From IMG/VR virus record IMGVR_UViG_3300021256_000002, positions 1 through 64,000 of that record: 64,000 nt of DNA. One strand, written 5' to 3'. The DNA comes from a virus (lineage: Duplodnaviria > Caudoviricetes). A program made the translations under genes and the position numbers. Positions 44,505 to 57,700 of this stretch are shown here, in pieces. The notes under the pieces are model-generated. The model had not been told where the DNA came from, made no database searches, and saw only the letters and a program-made list of their open reading frames with translations. Positions within the stretch are counted from its first letter, which is position 1. Each line of letters starts with the position of its first letter.

Positions 44505-45749
44505 TTATACATCAAACCATGAATCTTGCATTTCATCCTGTTTGATATAAGACGTATTCTTCATAATGTCAGTAGTTAAAATAGCAAATAACTCATCCAT
44601 CGCAGTTAATTGATTATGAGCATCATATATTTTATATCTATCACCTCTCCATGATCTGTATTGATTTATGAAAATGAGAGGATCCAGATCATTCTCAATA
44701 GTCATTTTAGCTAGAGCCTTCATCTTGCGACGTTCTCTAACAATGGAATCATTTGGAATCCCTCTAAAAAGCTTTCCAGTATAAGTCAATGTATATGTAG
44801 TCTTAAGGAAAGTAAACGACTTATGTATTGGAAATATAGAAGTTTTCTTTTTATTTATAAATATTCCTAATGAGTTGGAAATTTGCTCTATTTCATATAA
44901 TAGATCAATCAAGTACTCTTTAGAATGATGGATTACAATTCTATCATCCATATAGGCGTCATAATACTTGATTCTCTTAACCGTCTTACAATAATTATCC
45001 AACCTAAGAGGAAAGAATATTCCTAAAATCTGCGAAACTGGGCTTCCAATACCAACCGATTTATGCATGTACTTTTTACCTGTTAAGATACTTTTAGAAA
45101 GTCTATGATACTCTAATGAATTAAATACTTCATTTATGATATTATCATCGTCAGTATATGAAATATCTACTTTATAATGGTCGAGAATATCTGATACAAT
45201 ACTCAATATCTTATCGTCTGGAATATATTCGCTCAATAATTGTATCATAATATCATGACGTATATTATCAAAATACTTTCTAAAGTCTATTTTAAGAATA
45301 AACCCATCTAAACCATGTTTATTAAAGAACTGGTGCATATGTTGCTCAAAACGGCGTCGAGTAAAAGATATTCCTTTACCTTTTATAGAAGCTCCATTGT
45401 CGTGAATAAAGTATTTTGACAAAATAGGTATCAAAATAAAATTAGTTAGGGTATGCTGAATAAGCATATCCTTCGGTGAAAGAGCTTGAATATACCGTCG
45501 CTTACCACGTTCAGTTAGAATGAAATCATGACCTTTTTCCATAACGTAGTGCGAATCTGAATGAAATAATTCATATATCTCATTATAGACACTGAGTTTG
45601 TTCAACCATAAACGCTGAGTAGATGCTTTCCATCCACTAGCCTGCATAATCTTATTCATTGATATATCTAAATTATTGGGATCAGTTAGTATTTCAACCA
45701 ACGGAACACCATTTAATTTCATAACTCTCATACAATCACACTCTTTCAT
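44505..45749 (-). CDS. DGR reverse transcriptase
   Basis: DNGASIKGKG, LKIDFRKYFDNIRH, GIGSPVSQ (DGR-type SQ motif), YMDD; directly downstream of TR. Confidence 0.93.
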   Translation of the reverse strand: MKECDCMRVMKLNGVPLVEILTDPNNLDISMNKIMQASGWKASTQRLWLNKLSVYNEIYELFHSDSHYVMEKGHDFILTERGKRRYIQALSPKDMLIQHTLTNFILIPILSKYFIHDNGASIKGKGISFTRRRFEQHMHQFFNKHGLDGFILKIDFRKYFDNIRHDIMIQLLSEYIPDDKILSIVSDILDHYKVDISYTDDDNIINEVFNSLEYHRLSKSILTGKKYMHKSVGIGSPVSQILGIFFPLRLDNYCKTVKRIKYYDAYMDDRIVIHHSKEYLIDLLYEIEQISNSLGIFINKKKTSIFPIHKSFTFLKTTYTLTYTGKLFRGIPNDSIVRERRKMKALAKMTIENDLDPLIFINQYRSWRGDRYKIYDAHNQLTAMDELFAILTTDIMKNTSYIKQDEMQDSWFDV

Positions 45750-45896
45750 TTTACGGTAGAAAAATATACCGCTTATAGAAACAATATCCGTAGATAGTCT
45801 CGTCGGTATATAAATTTATCCCATACTAATTGCTTAGTATAAGAGCGGAATTAATCTCATTTCTATAACCATATATCCTTTTCGACACAATCGTTA

Positions 45897-46016
45897 GAAA
45901 TAAGGGCGGACACGACCGCTGGAGTTGGAAGCGTTGTTGTTGTTGGCATTACCGTTGTTGTTCGCATTGGCGAAGTTAGTCGAATTAGTGACCGAACGAA
46001 GCCAGCACCAACCAGC
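45897..46016 (-). repeat. DGR template repeat (TR), 120 bp
   Basis: Ungapped match to 46772-46891; AAC/AAT codon-rich; all 17 differences at TR adenines. Confidence 0.96.
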
Positions 46017-46029
46017 CGCAATGTTCAGA

Positions 46030-46596
46030 TTAACCCCTTACATTAGTGTTTGCTTTATTTTTCTTAATAGCAGCACGTATAGTATTTCTAACACCATTTA
46101 GCAGTATTATTTCTTCATCGATTATATTACACATTTTTACAAAATTTTTCAATTTACCTTTACAAATATCATCGATGACAGAATACTCTCTTTTGATTGT
46201 GTATAAAACAGATATAGCTTTATTAGTCATTATTAACCGACTAGAATGTTCAACTTCCACTGTTGCCCATGTAGTATAAACAAAGCATACTGCGTCATTG
46301 AAATCTGCAAGTAATTGATAGAATCTACGACGAATATATGACCTAAAATGTTTAGGATACACCAGCTGAGCTTTATATGGTTTATCAACATTGGATTCAT
46401 TTATAACTTTTTCAAGCTCTTCAATTTTAGCTTTCGTTTCTTCATCAGAGCATTTCTTAATCAACATCAAGTCTTTAACATGTTTTTTAGTACCAAAGTC
46501 TTTAAGAATTTCATACATGAGTAAGCGATGTATCATAACCGCTTTCTTCATATATTCAACAGTTGCGGTTTTTCTATATCGTTTTAGTACTCCCAT
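46030..46596 (-). CDS. avd: DGR accessory protein (Avd-like)
   Basis: Basic helical 188 aa protein positioned between target and TR. Confidence 0.7.
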   Translation of the reverse strand: MGVLKRYRKTATVEYMKKAVMIHRLLMYEILKDFGTKKHVKDLMLIKKCSDEETKAKIEELEKVINESNVDKPYKAQLVYPKHFRSYIRRRFYQLLADFNDAVCFVYTTWATVEVEHSSRLIMTNKAISVLYTIKREYSVIDDICKGKLKNFVKMCNIIDEEIILLNGVRNTIRAAIKKNKANTNVRG

Positions 46597-46645
46597 ATTA
46601 AATTGCCTCGCTTTTTATCTTTCTATTTCTGTAATAGCGTATTAA

Positions 46646-46690
46646 TTTTTATGGCGCGCGAGAAACTATAACACTCGCGCGCCATAAAAA
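46646..46690. terminator. GC-rich hairpin/terminator between target gene and avd
   Basis: TTTTTATGGCGCGCGAG...CTCGCGCGCCATAAAAA. Confidence 0.7.
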
Positions 46691-46716
46691 ACATCAATTT
46701 ATTATTTTCTTTGCGT

Positions 46717-46755
46717 GGTCGATTTTTGCGAGACACAGCTCGCTGCAAATCGACC
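46717..46755. promoter_or_regulatory. Hairpin just downstream of VR (candidate DGR target-recognition cruciform)
   Basis: GGTCGATTT..GCGAG-ACACAG-CTCGC..AAATCGACC immediately after target stop. Confidence 0.6.
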
Positions 46756-46759
46756 CAAA

Positions 46760-47908
46760 TTAGGTCAAAAGGAAATAAGGGCGGACACGACCGCTGGAGT
46801 CGGAAGCGTTGGCGGCGCTGGCACGACCGGCGCCGCTCGCACTGGCGAAGTCAGCCGAATCAGTGACCGAACGAAGCCAGCACCAACCAGCTCGACTAAA
46901 GGACAGTGATTTATTATGCCTCATTGCAGCCACCTGAGTATTACAATCCCCGATATCAAAACCAGAGCTACCCCAGCATTTAGATCCATATACCATGTTT
47001 TCGTTAAACAGATTTACCAACACCGGGACCCATTCCCAATTACTAGAAGCACCGGTCCATCCAGAATAACCACTAGAAGCAACGTCTGATTTAGCATTAG
47101 TCAGCAGTTCTTTATGGTTAAGTACATGGGCAGACCCAAATGCCGCCTGAATAGCTGCTGCATATTTAGGTATAGTATTATTCCACATTTCACTACCTTT
47201 ATATCCACCAGTGGTATCGTTGGTAGGATTCATTCTAGCAGCGCCGAGTACACCTTCAGGGAACATCAATACATGATGAATAGTTGTTTCGGCATCACCA
47301 CGATGTAAATGGTAATCCAGATCACCAACTATCCATTTCACGTTATATGTAGTGCCGTCTACCGTAATTGCTTTGGTGATATAATCACCAGGATAGATAT
47401 TCTTAAAGGTACCGGTTGCAATAGCAGTACTCATTGCACCACTATTGAAATAATCAGTCAGGTCACACCCACGATATAATGCATTATGAGCACCAGCGTT
47501 ATCCAAATGACCTAAGTAAAAAGCTTTTGTTTGATCTGACCCAGCGGGGAGATTAATTTTACTTAAATCGCCCCACTGTAGAATGAGGCCACCGAATAAC
47601 TGACCAAAACAAATATAACCATTCGTAGTGATGGAGTAACGTACGCCAAGTGCTGCCAGAGTCTCCTCTCCGATAGCAGAGACGACATTTGAAGCAAAAC
47701 TTTGTATATCCCCAGTTGAATGTTGATGCGTTGCAGCTGCAGATTCGATAGCCGCGCGTGCCTCAGCAGTTGTCGCAGATTTCAAAAGGGTTGTAATGAT
47801 TGATGCAAGTGCATTTTGTCCGGAAGATTTCAACTGATCAACGTCAGTTTCCGGATGAATGATATTTCCCGTGGATTTTTGTTTCCACGTAGCATTTACT
47901 GTTGCCAT
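46760..47908 (-). CDS. DGR target: tail fibre/receptor-binding protein with CLec-like variable C-terminus
   Basis: N-terminal 112 aa end in GYICFGQLFGGLILQW; C-terminal WCWLRS...GRVRPYF contains VR. Confidence 0.9.
   Translation of the reverse strand: MATVNATWKQKSTGNIIHPETDVDQLKSSGQNALASIITTLLKSATTAEARAAIESAAATHQHSTGDIQSFASNVVSAIGEETLAALGVRYSITTNGYICFGQLFGGLILQWGDLSKINLPAGSDQTKAFYLGHLDNAGAHNALYRGCDLTDYFNSGAMSTAIATGTFKNIYPGDYITKAITVDGTTYNVKWIVGDLDYHLHRGDAETTIHHVLMFPEGVLGAARMNPTNDTTGGYKGSEMWNNTIPKYAAAIQAAFGSAHVLNHKELLTNAKSDVASSGYSGWTGASSNWEWVPVLVNLFNENMVYGSKCWGSSGFDIGDCNTQVAAMRHNKSLSFSRAGWCWLRSVTDSADFASASGAGRASAANASDSSGRVRPYFLLT
46772..46891 (-). repeat. DGR variable repeat (VR)
   Basis: 3' end of target; 13 A>G and 4 A>C changes relative to TR. 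Confidence 0.96.
47573..47579 (-). repeat. ACAGTGG junction in expressed tail-fibre gene (candidate crossover site)
   Basis: ATTCTACAGTGGG identical (13 bp) to 54152-54164; ACAGTGG core begins six cassettes on + strand. Confidence 0.7.
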
Positions 47909-48031
47909 TTAACGTCATTCCTTTCTATTAGATGAAAGACAATTCATCTGTGTTTTGTTATATTCGTATTACTATTCTGTTTGAATTTTAATTTCGAGCA
48001 GAAAATCCAGCACGATGTGCTGGATTCCTAT

Positions 48032-48448
48032 TCAACTTTCAAGCGCTGAGGTTGCAATGCTTGGGTCTACGATATATGGAAGTTCAAGATACTTATTAAC
48101 ACCGTTTCCTACCTTAATACCATGGTTATCAGACTCTATAGCAAATTGCCCAGCTGCCACAATCGGGTTGTCGACAGCCAGCTCCTGAGCAGTTTTGAAG
48201 TATGGGGCTTTAGCCTTACGATTGATACAATCTACCAGCCGTTCAATTACCTCAGTGAGAGTTGTTACTCCAGAGGTACAAATGGTCGCAACTTCGTCAG
48301 CTGTCTGAGTACGATTCTCGATAGTCTTCTCCATCGTTACATCTCCAGACCCGCTGGTAAAACAAAGTTTGATATATTGGTCTCTGTCTTGGTCTAATTT
48401 ATAATGCGGTTCAACGTGAATCACAATTTCTTCAGCCACTAGACTCAC
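48032..48448 (-). CDS. Tail-fibre-associated protein with Mtd_N/hyaluronidase N-terminal-like domain
   Basis: NPIVAAGQFAIESDNHGIKVGNGVNKYLELPY. Confidence 0.75.
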   Translation of the reverse strand: MSLVAEEIVIHVEPHYKLDQDRDQYIKLCFTSGSGDVTMEKTIENRTQTADEVATICTSGVTTLTEVIERLVDCINRKAKAPYFKTAQELAVDNPIVAAGQFAIESDNHGIKVGNGVNKYLELPYIVDPSIATSALES

Positions 48449-48548
48449 CTACCTTCAAAAGCATATTTGTTATTAATACTGTCCATATAAACGGACAAAC
48501 TTGTAACTAAATAACAAGTAAATTTCAAAGAAAGGGCGTGAAATCCCT

Positions 48549-49058
48549 ATGGCTAAGATAGGCGCACTTCATCGAGTCACGAATTCGAGTGGTGGACATG
48601 TTGAGATGTATCCAATCACCTCAGTGTCTGCCATTCCTGATTTTGAAATAACCGTAGCCGCCAGACTTGCTGCTAATACAATATTCAAAACCGCTGCTCA
48701 ATGGTCAAGTGCTGGTTCAACTGTACTTCGGAATGGTCAGTTTGGGTATGAGACAGATACAAAATATGCGAAGATTGGTGATGGAAGTACTACATATGCA
48801 AATCTGCCATATGTGAAATCTCCTGTCAACCCCGACAATATTATTCGGAAAACCGCAGCTGCATGGGTTACTGCCGGTTCAACGGTACTTCTGGCTGGTC
48901 AGATTGGATATGAAACTGACAGCCATTACATGAAGATTGGTGATGGAACTACAACATATGCAAATCTGTCATATGTGATGACTCCGACTACGACAGTAGA
49001 ATTGAAGAGTGGTAACACAACGACTACGAATGATACCATCACTCTCACAATTTCATGA
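48549..49058 (+). CDS. Protein with two tandem Mtd_N/hyaluronidase N-terminal-like domains
   Basis: TAAxW...VLxxGQxGYETD...KIGDGxTTYANLxY twice. Confidence 0.8.
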   Translation: MAKIGALHRVTNSSGGHVEMYPITSVSAIPDFEITVAARLAANTIFKTAAQWSSAGSTVLRNGQFGYETDTKYAKIGDGSTTYANLPYVKSPVNPDNIIRKTAAAWVTAGSTVLLAGQIGYETDSHYMKIGDGTTTYANLSYVMTPTTTVELKSGNTTTTNDTITLTIS

Positions 49059-49096
49059 CAAAAAATCCAGAAGCTCATGCTTCTGGATTATTTCTT

Positions 49097-49606
49097 TTAG
49101 AATCTGATATCAACCAATGCAAGCATTGCACCAGCACAATCTGCGGCGAAATCTCCACCATCCCATTTGTTGTCAACCCATTTCTCCTTACCTGCTCCAA
49201 TTGCAACGGTTGTTGTGTATGCCCAGAATTTGTTCATTCCAAAGTTTCTTTGGAGTTGGTCACAAATGATATACGATACACCAAAATGAGCAACTCTATC
49301 CACACCAACCTTATTCTGAAGGTCATGCCAATTATGACTTCCTACATATACTGCACCGACAGCAAGCGCTGCAATACCGACACCCATGAGAGCTTTCTGT
49401 TTATCCTGCTTGAATTGAACATTTATCTCCTCAGATGCCTTATCAAGTTCAGGTTGAGTCGGTGTGTTCTGCTGAGCATACTGAATTGCAATCTGAGGAT
49501 TTTCCTTAGTATTTTCAGCAGCATAGCAAGACGCGTATCCAACAAACAGCATGAGCACTACGAGTACCAGTATACGAAGAAGTCTTTCACTCAAAGGAGT
49601 TTTCAT
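49097..49606 (-). CDS. Exported membrane protein, VanZ/YfiM-like (paralogue of 40143-40397)
   Basis: Signal peptide; DRVAHF...GAGKE...DFAADCAG. Confidence 0.7.
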   Translation of the reverse strand: MKTPLSERLLRILVLVVLMLFVGYASCYAAENTKENPQIAIQYAQQNTPTQPELDKASEEINVQFKQDKQKALMGVGIAALAVGAVYVGSHNWHDLQNKVGVDRVAHFGVSYIICDQLQRNFGMNKFWAYTTTVAIGAGKEKWVDNKWDGGDFAADCAGAMLALVDIRF

Positions 49607-49982
49607 ATATATTCACCTTCCTTTCATATGATTTTACTTATTAGTATATACAAATTCGTTACAAAGAGCCGAGTCTACCCCCATAGACTCGGCTCAATGA
49701 TATGGAAATGTTTCCTGTTCGATTATGGAGTTATCCGTCCAATCGAAGTCCCCAATTATTTGTTGTACACATATTATTTTTTATGAGCGCCAACAAATCA
49801 TTGTAGAAGTTGGTATGTCTCCGGCGTGTTTCAAGTTCATAGCCTTAACTGCTCCGACTACCAAGTTGATCAAGTTGCAGCGATTGCAGGCAGTTATTGT
49901 AATTACCAGCTTCTTACACTTGCTCATAAGAAATTAGAACTGGATGTTGATTCCAGTTCTAATTTTGCCCAGTATATCTAGG

Positions 49983-50285
49983 ACTATACAGTGGAGGCAA
50001 TGCGACTGTACTACAGTACCTATAACAGATGGCAGTGTAATATCAGTTAGGTGGGCTACAGCTGGCAGTATATTTAAAGTACCGTATATTATAAATCATA
50101 CTTTTGGTGCATTATTTAAAACGGTAACCAGTCCTACTTATATATATGGTAGAAATACTGGTAATGCTGATATAAGATTATGTGAGGATAGTATGGGAAC
50201 CCAATATTGGTCAGCGGCTGTATATGAGCGTCCAGGAGAAGATGGCCCAGGATTCCGTATGAACTGGATAAGTATTGGCCGCTGA
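49983..50285 (+). other. Silent tail-fibre C-terminal cassette 1
   Basis: Starts TIQW at ACAGTGG (49988), ends MNWISIGR*; no RBS. Confidence 0.75.
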
Positions 50286-50464
50286 TTTCCCAAACAAAAT
50301 CTCAGATATATATTATATTCTAGCTAAGTTGATAAAGCTTAGCTAGAATATCTTTCACGTGTAATGAAGGAGGCGTTGAGTTTAAATTACACGTAAACAA
50401 TTATATGGGCAAGAAAGATAAAGCCCAGAATACTTATGGTAACCTTAGGAGGTAACGTAGAATC

Positions 50465-50869
50465 ATGTTTAAGGTAAAAAGAGCAATTTGTTCATTAGCA
50501 GCTAGTATCGCATTATTCAGCGTTGTACCAAACAATTGCAATGCTGAATATATCACGGCATTTGAAGAGATTAAATACGAGAAGTACGTGGTTGATACTG
50601 ACTCGTTCTTCTATCCGAATGAGAAGGATAAGAATAGTCAGTTCAATTGTATCGTATGGAAGTATACCAGTGCGGAAGACAAAGGAAGCCCATTTGCTTT
50701 CAAGTTCAAGTTCGAAAACAACAAATGGTATATCCATGAACGGAACAAGAAGAATGAGCTTGAATGGGTTGGTGTAGACCCGACTTCCATTGCAGCTGGA
50801 GTACTCAGAGTAGCGCTTCCGTATATCGGTCATAGCGCTTTGGATAGAAAAGAAAAAGCCGAATCGTAA
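50465..50869 (+). CDS. Secreted protein with signal peptide
   Basis: RBS AGGAGG, hydrophobic N-terminus, early motif upstream. Confidence 0.75.
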   Translation: MFKVKRAICSLAASIALFSVVPNNCNAEYITAFEEIKYEKYVVDTDSFFYPNEKDKNSQFNCIVWKYTSAEDKGSPFAFKFKFENNKWYIHERNKKNELEWVGVDPTSIAAGVLRVALPYIGHSALDRKEKAES

Positions 50870-50995
50870 TTTATTTAATATAAAAAATTGGGGAAACACA
50901 TGGATTCAATTTCCATGTGCTTTCTTTTGTACCCGTAAATATTTATGAGTCCATCTACTGCTAAGTAACCTAATACGAAAGAAGGAATTTTAATT

Positions 50996-51328
50996 ATGAA
51001 AGTAAACTTTAAATTTGGCTTAGCCTGTATTCAAGATTTAACAGCTCTTAGATTTAGCGTAGGTCCATCAGTAAGAGATTTTAATGGTACGGTATCAAAT
51101 AAATATACCGTAACAGCTTTTATGAGTTCTGGTCCTACCGTTATAAGAGAAACGGTTGTACCTGAAATGTCCAATCTGACAACGATACGTTTAAAGCTCA
51201 GCTACGTTGTTGATGATATCAATCGCAGATTCTCTTGTACAGAAGTGGCTGGATATAATGGATGTACTGTCGTACTAGACGATAATCTCAATTACTACGT
51301 GGATGGCGAACTTAAGAGAAGAGGATAA
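50996..51328 (+). CDS. Hypothetical protein
   Basis: 110 aa ORF coupled to next. Confidence 0.65.
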   Translation: MKVNFKFGLACIQDLTALRFSVGPSVRDFNGTVSNKYTVTAFMSSGPTVIRETVVPEMSNLTTIRLKLSYVVDDINRRFSCTEVAGYNGCTVVLDDNLNYYVDGELKRRG

Positions 51329-53211
51329 TGATAATGAATAATGACGTAATGGAGAAATTCGATCTTCCTGGGGCAAAACAATTGACGAAAGTCGATGCAA
51401 TTGAATCTTTACTCGTACTTTTATCTTTGAGTTTTAGAATGAAGATTGCACCAACTTCATTATATCGTGCTGGATTGTATGATTATTTCATCAAGAAAGC
51501 TTCTGAATTACTGGATTACACGATGGAAGGAATTGATGATGAAGAAAAGGTAGCTTATCATTATATGAATTCCAACGTTATTCCGTTGAATGTTTGCAAT
51601 GAACTTATTCCTAGGTTATCTGAAAACGATATTACTCGTATAGAAATTGAATCAGCTATACCGCTTATCGCATCATGTACATATGCTCTGGATAAGCTAG
51701 TGGTTTTCAATGTGACGGATAGAACTTTCAAAATCGCAACGTTTGGGGGTGATTTGAAACAATTCATCCATACAATACACTTGACACCACGTGGAATGGT
51801 AACATCGATATCTGAATCAAATCAACCATCTTCTGGAGCACGGATTCAATTTTTGTTTGGTCCTACTCAATCAGAAGCACAATTTGGTATTGCTGTATTC
51901 AAAGCACTTGATAGAAAGAATCCTAGAGTAGGGAATAAATTCATCGTCAAGTTATTTACGTTACCATATGAGAATGCTTTATTGAATGAAGCCATGATTG
52001 GTTCTATGCCTACTAGCAAAGATACGATTACTAGCTTCATTGAAAATTCACACTTGGAAAAGAAAGTTTCTATTATGAATGCCGTTATTACCAATCAGAT
52101 TGAAATGGATACGGTAACGAAATATATGAAGTTAACATTCCCAAAGAAAAAATTTGATGACAAACCAACTTCATCATCAAATAACACAATCGATCCTGAC
52201 GCGGATGCGGTTATTACTTCACCTTTAAGTCTGTTTAATGATGAGGTGAATAAAGCCAAGATAAATAAGTCTCAAAGTCCTGATACATATATGGACGAAG
52301 AAGATGAATTTTTGAATAAGGTACTTGGTGGATCACCAGTCAAAGCAATTCGTCTTGACCATATGCCATCACCTGAAGAATTGAATAACATAATTGGTGG
52401 TTTTGTAGAAGGCGAAATGATGGGTGCTGATGACGATGAAGATGATGAAGGATTCTTCAAGAGTTTGTATTCTCAGTTGAACGATACGGATGTGAATGTT
52501 CTGTCATTCAAAGCATTTTTGAATAGTAAATTCAGAGCATTTGGTTGTATTCCATGTTATAAAGATAGGTATGGTAGAATGGGATGTATTCGGTTGAAAA
52601 ATCCTGGTAAGAAATACAATGGTTGTAAAGCATGTATTCGTCATCCAGATTATATCGATATGCTGAAAGCTGATATGATTAATGTACTCAAGACTTCTCC
52701 ATTTGGTAAATCTGAGCCAAATGCTGAGACGATATATAAAAACGAGCTTGACCAACGACTGGCGATATACCAACACTGGGATACTTATATCAATGACATT
52801 GATGTTACGTATATACGTCATGGGTATATTGATAGTCCTGAATTACTCAAAGAAGTTTTAGTTGATAAAACTTCAACTTATGGATATTATGATAAAAAGA
52901 ATAATGCTTGGTATAAGGGGTATTGCCATCGGTCTGTGGTACTTGAAGGTACTGTATTATATAACTTACATGGTAGATTGTTCGATAATGCGCTTGGTCA
53001 TATACCAGTACAATCATATGCATGTAAGGAAAGCTTAGGCATATACATGCCAGATACAATCTTGAACAGAATCAAGTTTGGATTGGTTAGTGTATTTATT
53101 TATAAGTATGCTAAGGATAAAAATAACAAGTTGGTTGAAGGTAGTGATACTAAAACTCTTGTGCTCATGCCTTTAGCTTTTACCGATTACAATAAAACAT
53201 TCGATGAATAA
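51328..53211 (+). CDS. Hypothetical protein
   Basis: 627 aa ORF; no recombinase motifs recognised. Confidence 0.75.
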   Translation: MIMNNDVMEKFDLPGAKQLTKVDAIESLLVLLSLSFRMKIAPTSLYRAGLYDYFIKKASELLDYTMEGIDDEEKVAYHYMNSNVIPLNVCNELIPRLSENDITRIEIESAIPLIASCTYALDKLVVFNVTDRTFKIATFGGDLKQFIHTIHLTPRGMVTSISESNQPSSGARIQFLFGPTQSEAQFGIAVFKALDRKNPRVGNKFIVKLFTLPYENALLNEAMIGSMPTSKDTITSFIENSHLEKKVSIMNAVITNQIEMDTVTKYMKLTFPKKKFDDKPTSSSNNTIDPDADAVITSPLSLFNDEVNKAKINKSQSPDTYMDEEDEFLNKVLGGSPVKAIRLDHMPSPEELNNIIGGFVEGEMMGADDDEDDEGFFKSLYSQLNDTDVNVLSFKAFLNSKFRAFGCIPCYKDRYGRMGCIRLKNPGKKYNGCKACIRHPDYIDMLKADMINVLKTSPFGKSEPNAETIYKNELDQRLAIYQHWDTYINDIDVTYIRHGYIDSPELLKEVLVDKTSTYGYYDKKNNAWYKGYCHRSVVLEGTVLYNLHGRLFDNALGHIPVQSYACKESLGIYMPDTILNRIKFGLVSVFIYKYAKDKNNKLVEGSDTKTLVLMPLAFTDYNKTFDE

Positions 53212-53380
53212 AAGAGAAGGAGCAAACGCTCCTTCTCTTAAAGATGAGTAAGAAGAGTGAGCGATAACCGCTCACTCTTCTTACGTGATCTGATGTGTGA
53301 TATATGGGTATCCGACACCAGGGATCAAACTCTCCATACTATATTGTATATACCAAAATACTTTTATAAGCAAAGTTTTG

Positions 53381-53590
53381 ATTATACAGTGGATGTGTGT
53401 AATACCTACAGAGGTACCAGAAGAATTTAATTTCCCAATTAGTTTAACTAGCACTGGTGTGCGGATTATCGTAGCAACAAATAATAGCCCGAGTAGAACG
53501 GAAGCTCCACAAGTAACATCTTCTCATGCAATTGTTGATCTATTTGGGACGGCTAATATATATACATACCTGATAATTCTAGGTTCATGA
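53381..53590 (+). other. Silent tail-fibre C-terminal cassette 2
   Basis: IIQW...FNFPIS...YLIILGS*; ACAGTGG at 53386. Confidence 0.78.
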
Positions 53591-53896
53591 TATGCACAGT
53601 GGAGCCAATACAATTTTGAATTAGCTAATTTCGTTAAGAATCCTTCTGGTGGTTGGATGGTTTTAAATAATAGTGTATATTATTGGCCTATAAATGCAGG
53701 AGCATCAATAGCTCGTTCAGGTATAGTTGATTGGGGTGCATTTACTGAAAAGGGGGAACATGGAAAAACAAATCTCCCTCAAATCTTTATAAAAAGCGAT
53801 TCTGGAGGTAGTTTTTATATTAGCGGCTTATATTCCGAGATATCAGACGCCCAAGGCGGTGGGAGTTTTTATCTCATCGGATGCTTTATAATATAA
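53591..53896 (+). other. Silent tail-fibre C-terminal cassette 3
   Basis: YAQW...YYWPIN...LIGCFII*; ACAGTGG at 53596, directly after previous stop. Confidence 0.72.
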
Positions 53897-53903
53897 CTTC
53901 GCA

Positions 53904-54152
53904 TTTCAACAGTGGATGCATTGTACTCCAGAAGAATTTGAAGCCACTGGAGTAGTAAACATAAATTACAGGAAACTTCCCATTCCATCTGCTATATATG
54001 ATGCAACCTTCACATTTAGATATGCGTTTGCATGGAATGCTGCATCATATACGTCTGTTGGATATGCCAATTCGTTTAGTTTACATATTACTGATATGAA
54101 TAATAATCCATTTACTCCAAATGACGTACGCGTTGTATTTATAACCGCTTAA
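53904..54152 (+). other. Silent tail-fibre C-terminal cassette 4
   Basis: FQQW...KLPIP...VVFITA*; ACAGTGG at 53909. Confidence 0.72.
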
Positions 54153-54439
54153 TTCTACAGTGGGCTAAGTACGCTGACTCTAGTGCGATTGAAACTGGTC
54201 GCCCAAATCATATTGCATATGAAAAACAAACTAATTATGATGATACAAAACTATACCGTGCAAGGCTTCCTATATCATTCACTACTGACGATGGATTTTT
54301 CGTATGTTCAAATTCAGCTTCTGGATCAGAATATCGTAATTTCAGATACTTTGATTATATATACGGATATGGAAAAGAAGCTGTTATTTTTCAAGGAGAT
54401 ATATTAATGGCTAGAATGATTATGGTATTAGGCTATTAG
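54152..54439 (+). other. Silent tail-fibre C-terminal cassette 5 (missed by ORF track)
   Basis: ILQWAKYADS...RLPISFT...MIMVLGY*; ACAGTGG at 54157. Confidence 0.78.
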
Positions 54440-54440
54440 G

Positions 54441-54692
54441 ATTATACAGTGGACGGTTGAAACTTTTTATGGTATAAAGGATGAGAATTGTGCAGTACCA
54501 TTACCTATAGAATTCCCAGACATTTACATAGCAGCTGTAAGATCATGTTGTACAGCTTCAGGGTCTCGTAATGTAACTACGATGGTTCAAGTAATGGGTA
54601 GGGATAAAGTAATACATGACGAGTTTTTGTTTGGGGTATTCAGTACACTGAACCAAAATGTTACTGTATGCGGAATTGCATTAGGATACTAA
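54441..54692 (+). other. Silent tail-fibre C-terminal cassette 6 (missed by ORF track)
   Basis: IIQWTVE...PLPIEFPD...CGIALGY*; ACAGTGG at 54446. Confidence 0.8.
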
Positions 54693-54694
54693 TA

Positions 54695-54730
54695 AATTAA
54701 CCTAGACGGTTTAAACCGTCTAGGTTAATT
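54695..54730. terminator. Bidirectional terminator after cassette array / tape measure gene
   Basis: AATTAACCTAGACGG-TTTAAA-CCGTCTAGGTTAATT. Confidence 0.75.
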
Positions 54731-54741
54731 CTTTTTACTTT

Positions 54742-57700
54742 TTAGAGACTTCTGAAGCTTCCACCTCGAGCAATTTCCAGATTCTTCATATGCATTGCAG
54801 AGAGTCCGTTATTACCACCAGGGTTTGTCAGACGCTGAGATGCTTCAAAATCTGCTTTGTTCATCGTAGGTCTTTCAGAAGGGAGTTTGAATGAAGTTTG
54901 GTCAGTATATCCTTTACCTCCATTGATGAGAGGAGAAGAACCACCACCAGTTACATTCACTTTCATACCACCAAAGGTATTATCCGCAATTCTCTTCAGA
55001 TATTCAATCATGACTTTCGCTTCAGCTTTGATACTGAGATACTTCATCATATTGAGTATTGAAGTCGAATCCGCACCATTTGGAGTATTGATATGGTTAT
55101 CAAACACGAACTGGTTATGAGACATTGGCAAGAAGTCATCAGTACTACCCATTCCACCATTATGCATCATGGAAGAGAGTCCACCGAATCCTTTACCACC
55201 AGAACGGCTACGATACATCTTAGGAGGTTTGATGAGAGGTTTACCATTTCCGCCATCATAGCTATCTCCATTACCTGAATATTTAGCTGCATACTGAGCA
55301 TACGTCATCTCTCCAGATTGAAGTTTACTATTAATCTCAAACGCGTTATCGATTATATCAATAATTGCAGTTGGACTAGCAGCACCTATTATCTCTAGGA
55401 GATTTGATATAGCTGGATATTCAGCAAGACATTCTTCAAGCGCCGCAAATGTAGCAGCTGGTAATATTGCTTTCAGTATCTTGATGACTGCTTGGAGTTT
55501 GGGACCTGTACCACCATGGATATATCCTTTACCACCAAAGTCTTTCGGAATCAGCGGACCGCCAGAACCACCATATTGCTTAGCACCAGATACGATATCT
55601 GGGAGCATTGCATACAGATTATCACCAGGACATGCAGTATTCGATACTTCACGATGACCAACAACATGTTGTCTATCAATCGGGAAATTGTATTTCTTAC
55701 TAAGTCCACCAATGAGTTTCTTAGCAGAATCGATCTGACCAGCACTTGGTGAATATTGACCACTGAAGTCACCAGTCAAGTTGATACCGATAGCATTTTG
55801 GTTTCCGAGGAAGCTCGTTGCGGTTTCATCACGTTTTGCGTGTGCACCCATAGCACCTTCATCCCTACCACGCTCAACAGTACCATCTTGACGAATCACG
55901 TAGTGATATCCAATACCATTCCATCCTTGACTTTGATGCAGTTTGTTCATATAATCAGCAGACCAGTCAGCGTTATTTGGACTAGCAGAATGATGGATAA
56001 CAACACCTTCAGTCTTTGCTCTATCATCACCACTAGATAACGGTTGACCAGTAATATTCAGTCCAGGAATATTGGTTATACCGCCATTTGTCTTTGGTTG
56101 TGGAACGCGATCCTTATATTTATTGTAAATCTCTCTAGCCGCAGCTCGACGTGGCGGGAAGTAACTTTCCGTAGTATTACCTTCATAATATCTGGTAAAC
56201 ACATCGGTTGCCGCCTCAACTGAACCAGCATTATTCAAATCATCTTTACCAATATTACGGACTTTATTATCCATTTCTTGATTGAAATATTTGATTTGAT
56301 TACCGATATCATACCAATGTCCACCACTAGATTTAGCAAATTCAAGTAAAGCTTGACCACGAGGACCAGTCCATTGTGCAAGACCAAATCCAGGATAATA
56401 CGTACCATCACTACCTTTATACGCAGAATGTTCTATACTTAATCCTTGAGAAGCATAATTATTGAAAAGATTTTCAGTATGAGCATTTCTAGCATTACTA
56501 TTGGTAGCAATCTCATCATACCCAGGGAAGCTAGATGCAGTATCCCATTCAACTCGTTTTGGTTGAATACCAGATTCATGTTTCCATGGACCCATGATAC
56601 CGGCAGCAGCTTCTTTAGTATAGCCATTGGTAGTAAGGTAATCCCACATATCCTGTTCGTTATTACCAGTGCTATTGAAATCACCAGAACCAGCAGAACT
56701 TCTACCACTATCAGAACTATCTCTCATCAACGCATCAACGTCAATTTCATGGATATTACCAGTCAAAGCCATTTCAGTTGCCTGACCGAGAATACCACCG
56801 ATAGCTTTACTGAGCTTAGCAAACAATCCCATCTTAGCAGTAGAACCAGAAGATTTACTACCAGCAGAACCATTCGATTTAGCAGAAGTTTCATCTGAAG
56901 TCTTACCAGAAGCAGACCAACTATCAATTTTATCACTCGGTTGAATGGTTGGATTAAAGAGAATGTTACCCTGGCCAGAAGAATATCCCTGAGAATTACC
57001 TTTTGCACTTGGGTCGAAAATCTGACTAGCATTGAGTTTATGAATCATACCACCATTTGAGTCGTATACTTCATATGTACCATCAGAAAGTCTTCTACCA
57101 ACAACGGTTGCATGTGCACCACCACCACGATTCAACGGATGACTACCACTGCTACCATCGCCACCAACCTGATACAACATCATCGGGTGTTCCGGATTTG
57201 CACCAAAGTTAGATTCAAGGTAATTTACAAAAGCATCTCCTTCACCCGGAGAGAATATCTTCTCTTCTGCAGGAAGTCCTAATACAGACTTATACCACCA
57301 ATTACTACCACCGAAGTCGTAGTTACTGGATGTCGTATCAGTTCCTTTGTATGCATTTATCAATGCAGCTGCGGCAGTTAGTGTACAATTGCTATTGGTA
57401 CTCTGCTGTGGCATGAACATCTTGTTACCAAAGCCACCATACAGCCAGCCACCACGACCACCAGCAGACCTTCCTTTACTCATATATCCAAGTACTCTAG
57501 GAGAACGAGGACCATTGATATATCCAGAAAGTGCTTTGGTAGACATGAGAGCTGAACCACCAGCAGGGTCATCCACCATGGTATAGGCTTTACCACCACG
57601 TTTTATCAACCCACGAGCATTTACGTAGTGGCCTCCTTGACCAGTCTGTACACCAGCAATGAGGCTCTTACCACTACCAAGTGCTTTTTCCATATCAGCA

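Follow-up and report, generated by a model that had tools for sequence, protein, structure and literature searches.

Can one phage tail-fibre gene be diversified both by exchange of its C-terminal domain among stored cassettes and by a diversity-generating retroelement (DGR) that mutates one of those domains? The question is raised by the gene at positions 46760-47908 (minus strand) of a 64,000-nt stretch of DNA (the window) from the virus record IMGVR_UViG_3300021256_000002 (Caudoviricetes), in which the motif ACAGTGG, present inside this gene, recurs at the head of start-less reading frames. The whole record, complete at 253,296 bp, has direct terminal repeats and a GC content of 38%, and the window is its start; coordinates beyond 64,000, labelled "genome" below, lie outside the window. 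The sequencing runs that hold this phage are sheep and cattle gut or rumen metagenomes, and the contigs of its relatives (designated here by L and a number) come from rumen assemblies. A sequence-only reading of the window had proposed that both routes of diversification act on this gene, and the comparisons described here support that proposal through fusions in relatives, rearrangement breakpoints located exactly at the core motif, a DGR cassette found unfused, and a tyrosine recombinase encoded amid the cassettes. We consider it very probable, on this comparative evidence, that the locus is a multi-inversion shufflon run by a single tyrosine recombinase, in which the expressed cassette is an active DGR target.

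Seven-base cores and the cassettes behind them

In the target gene, LILQW occupies amino acids 108-112 and its end is coded by ACAGTGG, as had been read from the sequence. This copy (47573-47579, minus strand), the crossover core of the expression site, codes the xxA-Q-W of LILQW and ends a constant N-terminal part (amino acids 1-110; 47580-47908, minus strand) whose terminal ...NGYICFG.LFGGLILQW is invariant in 25 relatives with different C-termini. Six further copies were confirmed on the plus strand, and at each the frame xxA-CAG-TGG opens 68 to 100 amino acids with a stop codon 1 to 30 codons upstream, so that the six start-less segments in the same frame were also described correctly. These silent cassettes, all on the plus strand, are cassette 1 (99 amino acids, 49986-50285, core 49988), cassette 2 (68 amino acids, 53384-53590, core 53386), cassette 3 (100 amino acids, 53594-53896, core 53596), cassette 4 (81 amino acids, 53907-54152, core 53909), cassette 5 (94 amino acids, 54155-54439, core 54157) and cassette 6 (82 amino acids, 54444-54692, core 54446), and the C-terminal endings quoted for several of them (WISIGR, ILGS, VLGY and IALGY) are accurate. 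Five of them tile head to tail from 53384 to 54692, up to a perfect palindrome of 18 + 18 nt (54695-54730), a bidirectional terminator that ends both the cassette array and a convergent gene of 3940 amino acids, and at which Logan contigs break. Cassette 5, which is 97% conserved in L006, has LILQW encoded in its upstream flank too. An eighth ACAGTGG in the window, at 46257 (minus strand), heads a frame of only 10 amino acids and was set aside as a chance occurrence.

Across the whole genome ACAGTGG occurs 22 times, and 17 of these copies (10 on the plus and 7 on the minus strand) fall in two clusters that together make up 14.9 kb of 253 kb (Poisson P 6e-14). The second cluster (locus 2, genome 82.7-90.7 kb) contains plus-strand cores at 82724, 83400, 85109 and 85365 and minus-strand cores at 88262, 88606, 88857, 89114, 90320 and 90714, each of which heads a frame of 67 to 113 amino acids in this phase, the open stretch upstream being no longer than 21 codons. 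All 17 clustered cores head frames of 67 to 273 amino acids in one phase and the scattered copies do not; the four elsewhere in the genome and the copy at 46257, with frames of 0 to 36 amino acids, were rejected as chance. When a site was called cassette-like if at least 67 codons were open downstream and at most 30 upstream, 16 of the 21 sites other than the expression site at 47573 qualified, against an empirical background of 0.04 (binomial P 1e-18). Because a long upstream frame is present only at 47573, the genome has one expression site and 16 silent cassettes. The earlier idea that the phage chooses among seven tips is thus right as to a repertoire of several cassettes and wrong as to its size, since there are 17 sites (16 of them silent), ten of which, together with the recombinase, lie 35-43 kb away outside the window.

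We repeated the count independently of the exact core by scanning all codings of Q-W. Among cassette-like Q-W starts in the cassette loci, 48 of 49 use A-CAG-TGG, and the codon before the core specifies about ten different amino acids while its third base is always A. Elsewhere in the genome QW is preferentially coded CAA-TGG (139 against 39), and the near-invariance of A-CAG in the face of this preference indicates that the constraint on the core acts on DNA and not on protein. Such a pattern fits a crossover (overlap) region in which the partner sites would need to be identical, comparable to the 7-bp core of the R64 sfx sites. When 71 distinct sites were compared, taken from this genome and from relatives, nothing beyond the 7-mer was invariant, and the flanks showed weak conservation (T at -3 in 52 of the 71, A or C at -2 and R at +7).

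Two sites in locus 2 are unusual. The segment at genome 85365-85566 (plus strand) codes a basic, atypical "cassette" that is nevertheless 97% conserved in L023 and serves as a recombination junction there; it may be a site-bearing spacer rather than a tip domain. At genome 90381-90785 (minus strand; L002 11382-11786) an ATG 21 codons upstream of core 90714 yields a 134-amino-acid open reading frame (ORF), and in L023 the upstream frame is open for 87 codons, so that 90714 might act as a weak second expression site, or the open frame might be a by-product of the divergent promoter region.

The six window cassettes taken alone had no Pfam match at E<=1. PF21882 (Gp53-like_C), a domain of tail-fibre tips, was present as a precomputed match in eight fused proteins of relatives and in silent cassettes of L005. 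With a hidden Markov model (HMM) built from the cassettes of relatives, five independent cassettes of this genome, of which only that at 53386 lies in the window, outscored all 320 shuffled controls. Cassette 6 was the best match to this model, a score inflated by the near-identical L006 and L008 copies in the training set.

Fusions and rearrangements in related genomes

Natural proteins of relatives, more than 25 in number, fuse the LILQW N-terminus to alternative cassettes. With the first 133 amino acids of the target as query, 28 proteins were returned, about 25 of which (165-222 amino acids) keep the N-terminus through LILQW and then continue into unrelated C-termini of 68-103 amino acids. 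The fusions diverge immediately after the core in all relatives, and the constant part is 97-98% identical in three of the fused proteins. One of the silent cassettes of L006 is matched by an expressed homologue in L017 (72% identity), and a metagenome pattern scan for the expression-site junction found three loci, namely one DGR-fused strain, L003, and one other fusion. The constant part is preceded in L003, L005, L017 and L018, as it is here, by a fibre-like gene (48032-48448, minus strand; 135-138 amino acids with an Mtd_N-like motif, matching PHROG tail-fibre families at 3e-7), with which the target gene may be co-transcribed. The promoter that had been placed at 47970 received no support: a scan for sigma-70 sites found none on the minus strand at that position, and matches were no more frequent than in shuffled sequences.

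Rearrangements between closely related genomes place their breakpoints at the cores. In L023, a 241.5-kb relative that is 94-96% identical, the sequence upstream of core 90714 is joined across a core to the cassette of 82724, and the sequence upstream of 82724 is joined across a core to the cassette of 85365; the segment carrying the PhoH gene has the opposite orientation and has changed sides relative to the recombinase, and every breakpoint is at a core. This arrangement is what two successive inversions between cores of the genome studied here produce. In L008 and L010 (95% identical), core 53386 is followed by a core-to-core segment that is 82% homologous to locus 2 at 90720-90317, and then by cassette 54446, which amounts to an exchange between loci 35 kb apart. 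In L006 and L012 (96-98% identical; run X3), the stretches 49995-50282 and 53393-54148 are replaced by other cassettes, including those that follow core 53386, with the left breakpoints at the last base of the core. Cassette 1 is swapped for three or four others among L006/L012, L009 and L010, its left breakpoint (49994) again being the last base of the core, and cassette 6 is still open and 83-88% conserved in L006, L008 and L010. Between the cores, three passenger genes of 134, 110 and 627 amino acids (50465-53211, plus strand), to which no function is assigned and for which Pfam, PHROG and NCBIfam gave no family match, are 95-96% conserved in relatives although the flanking cassettes differ. 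Two further relatives are arranged differently: the 17.7-kb contig L005 unites in a single locus the expression site, a recombinase with 69% identity and about 27 cassettes, which occupy both strands, and the 216-kb genome L003 has 16 cores, its expression site adjoining PhoH, which in the present genome belongs to locus 2.

The expressed C-terminal cassette (46760-47572, minus strand), a module of 270 amino acids, is itself the target of the adjacent DGR. This element comprises a reverse transcriptase of 414 amino acids (44505-45749, minus strand; Pfam RVT_1 1.9e-13, PHROG 1423 reverse transcriptase 3.8e-52) and a 120-nt template repeat (TR; 45897-46016, minus strand) that is 86% identical to the variable repeat (VR; 46772-46891) at the 3' end of the target, where it codes amino acids 340-379 of 382. 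TR and VR are the only two copies in the genome, which has a single VR, and each of the 17 positions at which they differ is an adenine in the TR (13 A>G, 4 A>C). Two relatives of the target protein, P0029 (from a 253,188-bp contig) and P0158, differ from it only at amino acids 350-370 (12-13 changes), and other members of the cluster vary mainly there. The restriction of mismatches to TR adenines, and of differences between near-identical genomes to the VR, indicates that the DGR is active. A 188-amino-acid ORF (46030-46596, minus strand) that is conserved in relatives separates the target from the TR, which is where a DGR accessory gene would be expected; it matched nothing in Pfam, PHROG or NCBIfam, and its position suggests an Avd-like accessory gene.

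Structure prediction was of no help in judging whether this module has a C-type-lectin-like fold that displays the VR. The AF2 model of the 382-amino-acid target had a pLDDT of 65, falling below 50 over amino acids 344-364 (the VR region) with the last ~20 residues well modelled, and that of a natural short fusion, P0003, was unusable (pLDDT 55). Foldseek with the target model returned nothing at E<=0.001, and VIA-align gave as its best match 9qa6 (Z 8.8 over residues 156-382), the N-terminal region of an IgA peptidase, with the TvpA structure 2y3c at only Z 3.5.

The DGR module also occurs apart from the constant part. It belongs to a large family of DGR targets, with 399 homologues that have many different N-termini, and in P0030 and P0076 it joins other fibres at the same GLI(L/I)QWG boundary. 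In L024 (94% identical) the DGR cassette is silent and lies behind another silent cassette of 84 amino acids, each headed by a core. It is silent in L016 as well, where its neighbour is homologous to the left edge of locus 2 (genome 82096-82250); in P0031 a cassette of the L016 type follows the constant part as a fusion (87% amino acid identity, with the differences mostly in the VR). Being both fused and silent among relatives, the DGR module behaves, by this comparison, as a shufflon cassette. The geometry of L016 and L003 would fit an inversion of ~35 kb between the core of the DGR cassette and an expression site formerly adjacent to locus 2. The silent copy in L024 (310-1606) is frameshifted relative to the window copy (a 202-amino-acid call with 7 alignment gaps), representing either decay in the off state or an assembly error.

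The recombinase and competing explanations

The only protein with a PF00589 domain in the genome is a tyrosine recombinase of 298 amino acids (genome 86693-87589, minus strand; 3e-17), encoded between the plus and minus cores of locus 2. Aligned to archaeal XerA (4a8e), it has the R, HxxR, H and Y motifs in place. No serine recombinase (PF00239) was matched in the complete 253-kb genome, where control genomes were positive. We infer that the tyrosine recombinase is the catalyst of core exchange. The genes for it and for a PhoH-like ATPase (genome 83751-84503) ride on core-bounded invertible segments, whose order and orientation differ among this genome, L003 and L023.

In the mechanism that we propose, the expression site would supply the constant 110 amino acids, after the small fibre gene, ending in a core that codes the Q-W of the first strand of the tip domain. 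The 16 tip cassettes, six at 49.9-54.7 kb and ten at 82.7-90.7 kb, are promoter-less and start-less and all have this core at their head, and strand exchange between the expression-site core and an inverted core would flip the intervening DNA and join the constant part in frame to another tip. Successive inversions would shift cassettes and their passengers (PhoH, the recombinase and the 3-kb gene block) within and between loci. The tip expressed at present is the 270-amino-acid module, its last 40 codons forming the VR of the adjacent DGR, which could keep mutating that cassette while it is silent. With the DGR-target module as one cassette among others, the tip would therefore be chosen by recombination and one tip would be fine-tuned by adenine-directed mutagenesis. 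That these inversions act at the scale of the genome, and that they occur at present, are two further claims, each of which we hold less firmly than the mechanism and regard as roughly evenly balanced. A fuller version, in which the shufflon works at genome scale and across genomes, is possible, although we rate it somewhat below even: cores 35-43 kb apart would flip ~14% of the chromosome and so toggle the DGR tip, co-infecting relatives would trade cassettes in the manner of integrons, and a silent DGR cassette would be a pre-diversified reserve.

Several observations weigh against a shufflon that works by inversion in this strain. We examined Logan contigs of four runs for inversion joints and found no inversion isomer in the source sample (run X1), where one 7954-nt contig is colinear and unbranched through the seven window cores at ~22x depth; rare variants are lost from such contigs. 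Among public proteins, none was found in which the constant part is followed by one of the 16 cassettes of this genome, and the tips of the fused proteins are not close matches to these cassettes. The cassettes at 85365, 49988, 53596, 53909 and 85109 show no family resemblance above the shuffled control, and dN/dS of silent cassettes between strains (~0.6-1.5) is too noisy to reveal selection. In this genome 39 kb separate the recombinase from the expression site, whereas in L005 the two are adjacent. Cassette inventories are almost wholly different between strains that are 95-98% identical, and the variable stretch that begins at core 49988 always ends, in three strain comparisons with unrelated last cassettes, at the stop codon TGA at 50283-50285, where there is no core. 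Inversion alone explains neither the turnover of the inventory nor this boundary. An integron-like trade of cassettes between co-infecting relatives would explain the near-complete turnover at such identity, and 50283-50285 may be a second, unrecognised crossover point or the edge of an allelic replacement.

The alternative that survives best is a frozen or very slow switch, in which the locus is of site-specific origin, the DGR-fused state is effectively fixed, and the differences between strains are rare evolutionary events. In its favour, the DGR fusion is kept in every genome with 95% identity or more over the locus (L006, L007, L009, L011, L012 and L020), other states are found only in strains that have diverged by 3.5-6% (L017, L018 and L024), and the source contig is unbranched at every core. 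The recombinase ORF, however, is intact and conserved (21 cluster members at >=90% identity), silent cassettes remain open across strains, L017, which has a different fusion, shares its BioSample with the 253-kb contig L007, and minority isomers would not be visible in assemblies. We therefore regard a frozen switch as unlikely, though it is the one alternative with appreciable weight, and suggest that switching may still be active in this strain.

A second alternative accepts the site-specific exchange and assigns it to a host Xer-type enzyme or another phage protein, the embedded recombinase then serving for integration or dimer resolution. The distance of the recombinase from the expression site would be compatible with this, as would its weak, generically Xer-like NCBIfam match (60 bits against cut-offs of 220 or more, and far below every curated Xer or integron cut-off). 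Against it, there is no second recombinase in the genome, the recombinase gene rides on an invertible segment and has cores on its flanks here as well as in L005 and L023, the genome has direct terminal repeats, and no sign of lysogeny was met, although no search was aimed at it; another catalyst appears improbable.

More improbable still is general (homologous or illegitimate) recombination at a domain boundary, by which the stored fragments would be debris and no dedicated recombinase would take part. GLI(L/I)QWG is indeed a natural domain boundary, found also in the unrelated fibres P0030 and P0076, and both the variable stretch that ends at a stop codon and the inventory turnover would sit well with such exchange. 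Homologous recombination, however, needs more than seven bases, the core does not vary even at synonymous positions, dozens of intact start-less cassettes in the same phase and in both orientations surround a recombinase in three genomes, and the reciprocal junctions in L023 are conservative and core-exact.

The weakest alternative, that the short cassettes are independent small genes sharing an N-terminal QW motif, can draw on the ATG directly after the core at 53386 and 53909 and on gene callers that sometimes call cassettes as ORFs, but is scarcely credible, given that in most cassettes no start codon precedes or coincides with the core and the frame is closed by a stop 0-30 codons upstream, that they lack the first strands of the tip domain, and that relatives have modules of this kind fused to the constant part.

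Neighbouring genes, related systems and significance

Between the upstream fibre-like gene and cassette 1, the plus-strand gene at 48549-49058 codes a fibre-like protein of 169 amino acids with two Mtd_N repeats that derive from a 162-nt tandem repeat (48687-48985); its version in L009 (5026-6159) has 377 amino acids and extra repeat copies, so that repeat number varies between strains. The gene that follows is 49097-49606 (minus strand, 169 amino acids), a homologue of a 188-amino-acid gene in L003, with a bidirectional terminator at 49064-49089; it is this conserved gene, and not the Cys-rich, low-complexity ORF at 49055-49786 (plus strand, 243 amino acids), rejected as spurious, that occupies the interval. 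A 45-nt element with a hairpin lies 3' of cassette 1 (50307-50351) and has a second copy on another 40-kb contig of this phage from run X1; this repeated intergenic element is perhaps a terminator or promoter module. The 3940-amino-acid minus-strand gene convergent with the cassette array (54742 to genome 66564) has Phage_lysozyme2 and Amidase_2 domains and a variable patch, 55251-55504, in whose place strains X3 and X7 have about 240 different letters.

Queries of IMG/VR with the constant part and with the 627-amino-acid passenger protein gave no related locus, and in GenBank phage records the constant part was found in none and relatives of the recombinase were at most 33% identical. The phage belongs, as far as these searches reach, to a clade of uncultured rumen jumbo phages that have no relative in GenBank phage records.

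Among described systems, the shufflon of the IncI1 plasmid R64 acts on the pilus adhesin gene pilV through the tyrosine recombinase Rci, with four segments and 19-bp sfx repeats that contain a 7-bp core. The present locus resembles it in its asymmetric sites, its 7-bp core, its constant N-terminus with switchable C-termini and its inversion-only logic. The ACAGTGG site is presumably unrelated in sequence to sfx, and NCBIfam gave no Rci-specific match for the recombinase, its weak Xer-like matches being well below the cut-offs. Gin of Mu, Cin of P1 and Min of p15B are serine invertases that use an enhancer and Fis, Min acting on multiple sites (PMC6109161). These systems, like the one proposed here, switch the C-terminus of a tail fibre by inversion at sites inside the coding sequence; they differ from it in their enzyme, as this genome has no serine recombinase. 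The sequence-only reading had named Mu gin, P1 cin and the R64 shufflon together as known invertible cassettes; with a tyrosine enzyme, the system is like R64 and Rin and not like Gin and Cin.

The Rin shufflon is found in prophages of Bifidobacterium breve and longum and of Eggerthella lenta clade 1, with five cassettes in one compact locus and an 11-bp rix site, TTCCCTAACCC; in Eggerthella lenta prophages, Rin and DGR occur in different clades (PMC6109161; PMC8778435). Both Rin and the present system have a phage tyrosine recombinase, a constant 5' part of the receptor-binding protein gene and dissimilar 3' cassettes that each follow a short asymmetric repeat, and in both, multiple inversions show up when genomes are compared. 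Unlike Rin, which belongs to temperate siphophages and has no DGR, this locus has 17 cores in two loci over 43 kb, a DGR-target cassette, and passenger genes and the recombinase on invertible segments; its site is an invariant 7-bp ACAGTGG rather than rix, and the likeness is one of layout and enzyme family. A shufflon in BV01-like phages of Phocaeicola vulgatus has three cassettes in 1.7 kb and a 10-bp motif, with activity shown by reads (PMC13596623). It shares with this locus a recombinase-associated array of several cassettes over the distal end of a tail-fibre gene, whereas the system described here is much larger and DGR-coupled, and its activity is deduced from comparisons.

As to the second route of diversification, the DGR of Bordetella phage BPP-1 has a reverse transcriptase, a TR and a VR at the 3' end of the tail-fibre gene mtd, on which it acts by adenine-specific mutagenesis. 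Gut-phage DGRs have the same layout of reverse transcriptase, TR and VR (PMC8144416). The fibre genes neighbouring the present target carry repeats of the Mtd_N type, as in BPP-1 Mtd; in BPP-1 and the gut phages, however, the target gene is fixed, whereas here the VR module would be one exchangeable shufflon cassette. Our searches of the literature for a DGR combined with a shufflon or inversion on one gene brought up no paper in which a shufflon cassette is the target of a DGR. Tyrosine-recombinase shufflons of receptor-binding proteins are already known, and what is unusual here is the size, the layout in two loci, and an expressed cassette that is an active DGR target.

Phage host range is largely set by fibre tips, and in this phage cassette inversion and DGR mutagenesis, known separately, would converge on one gene, giving a coarse choice among at least 17 tips and the fine tuning of one. 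Phage shufflons described so far are much smaller than this system, which in relatives runs to dozens of cassettes and whose minimal 7-bp core sits at a structural domain boundary. It could thus serve as a natural scaffold for modular exchange of receptor-binding proteins and as a test case for long-range site-specific inversion in linear phage genomes, and it offers a possible explanation for how such phages track variable rumen hosts.

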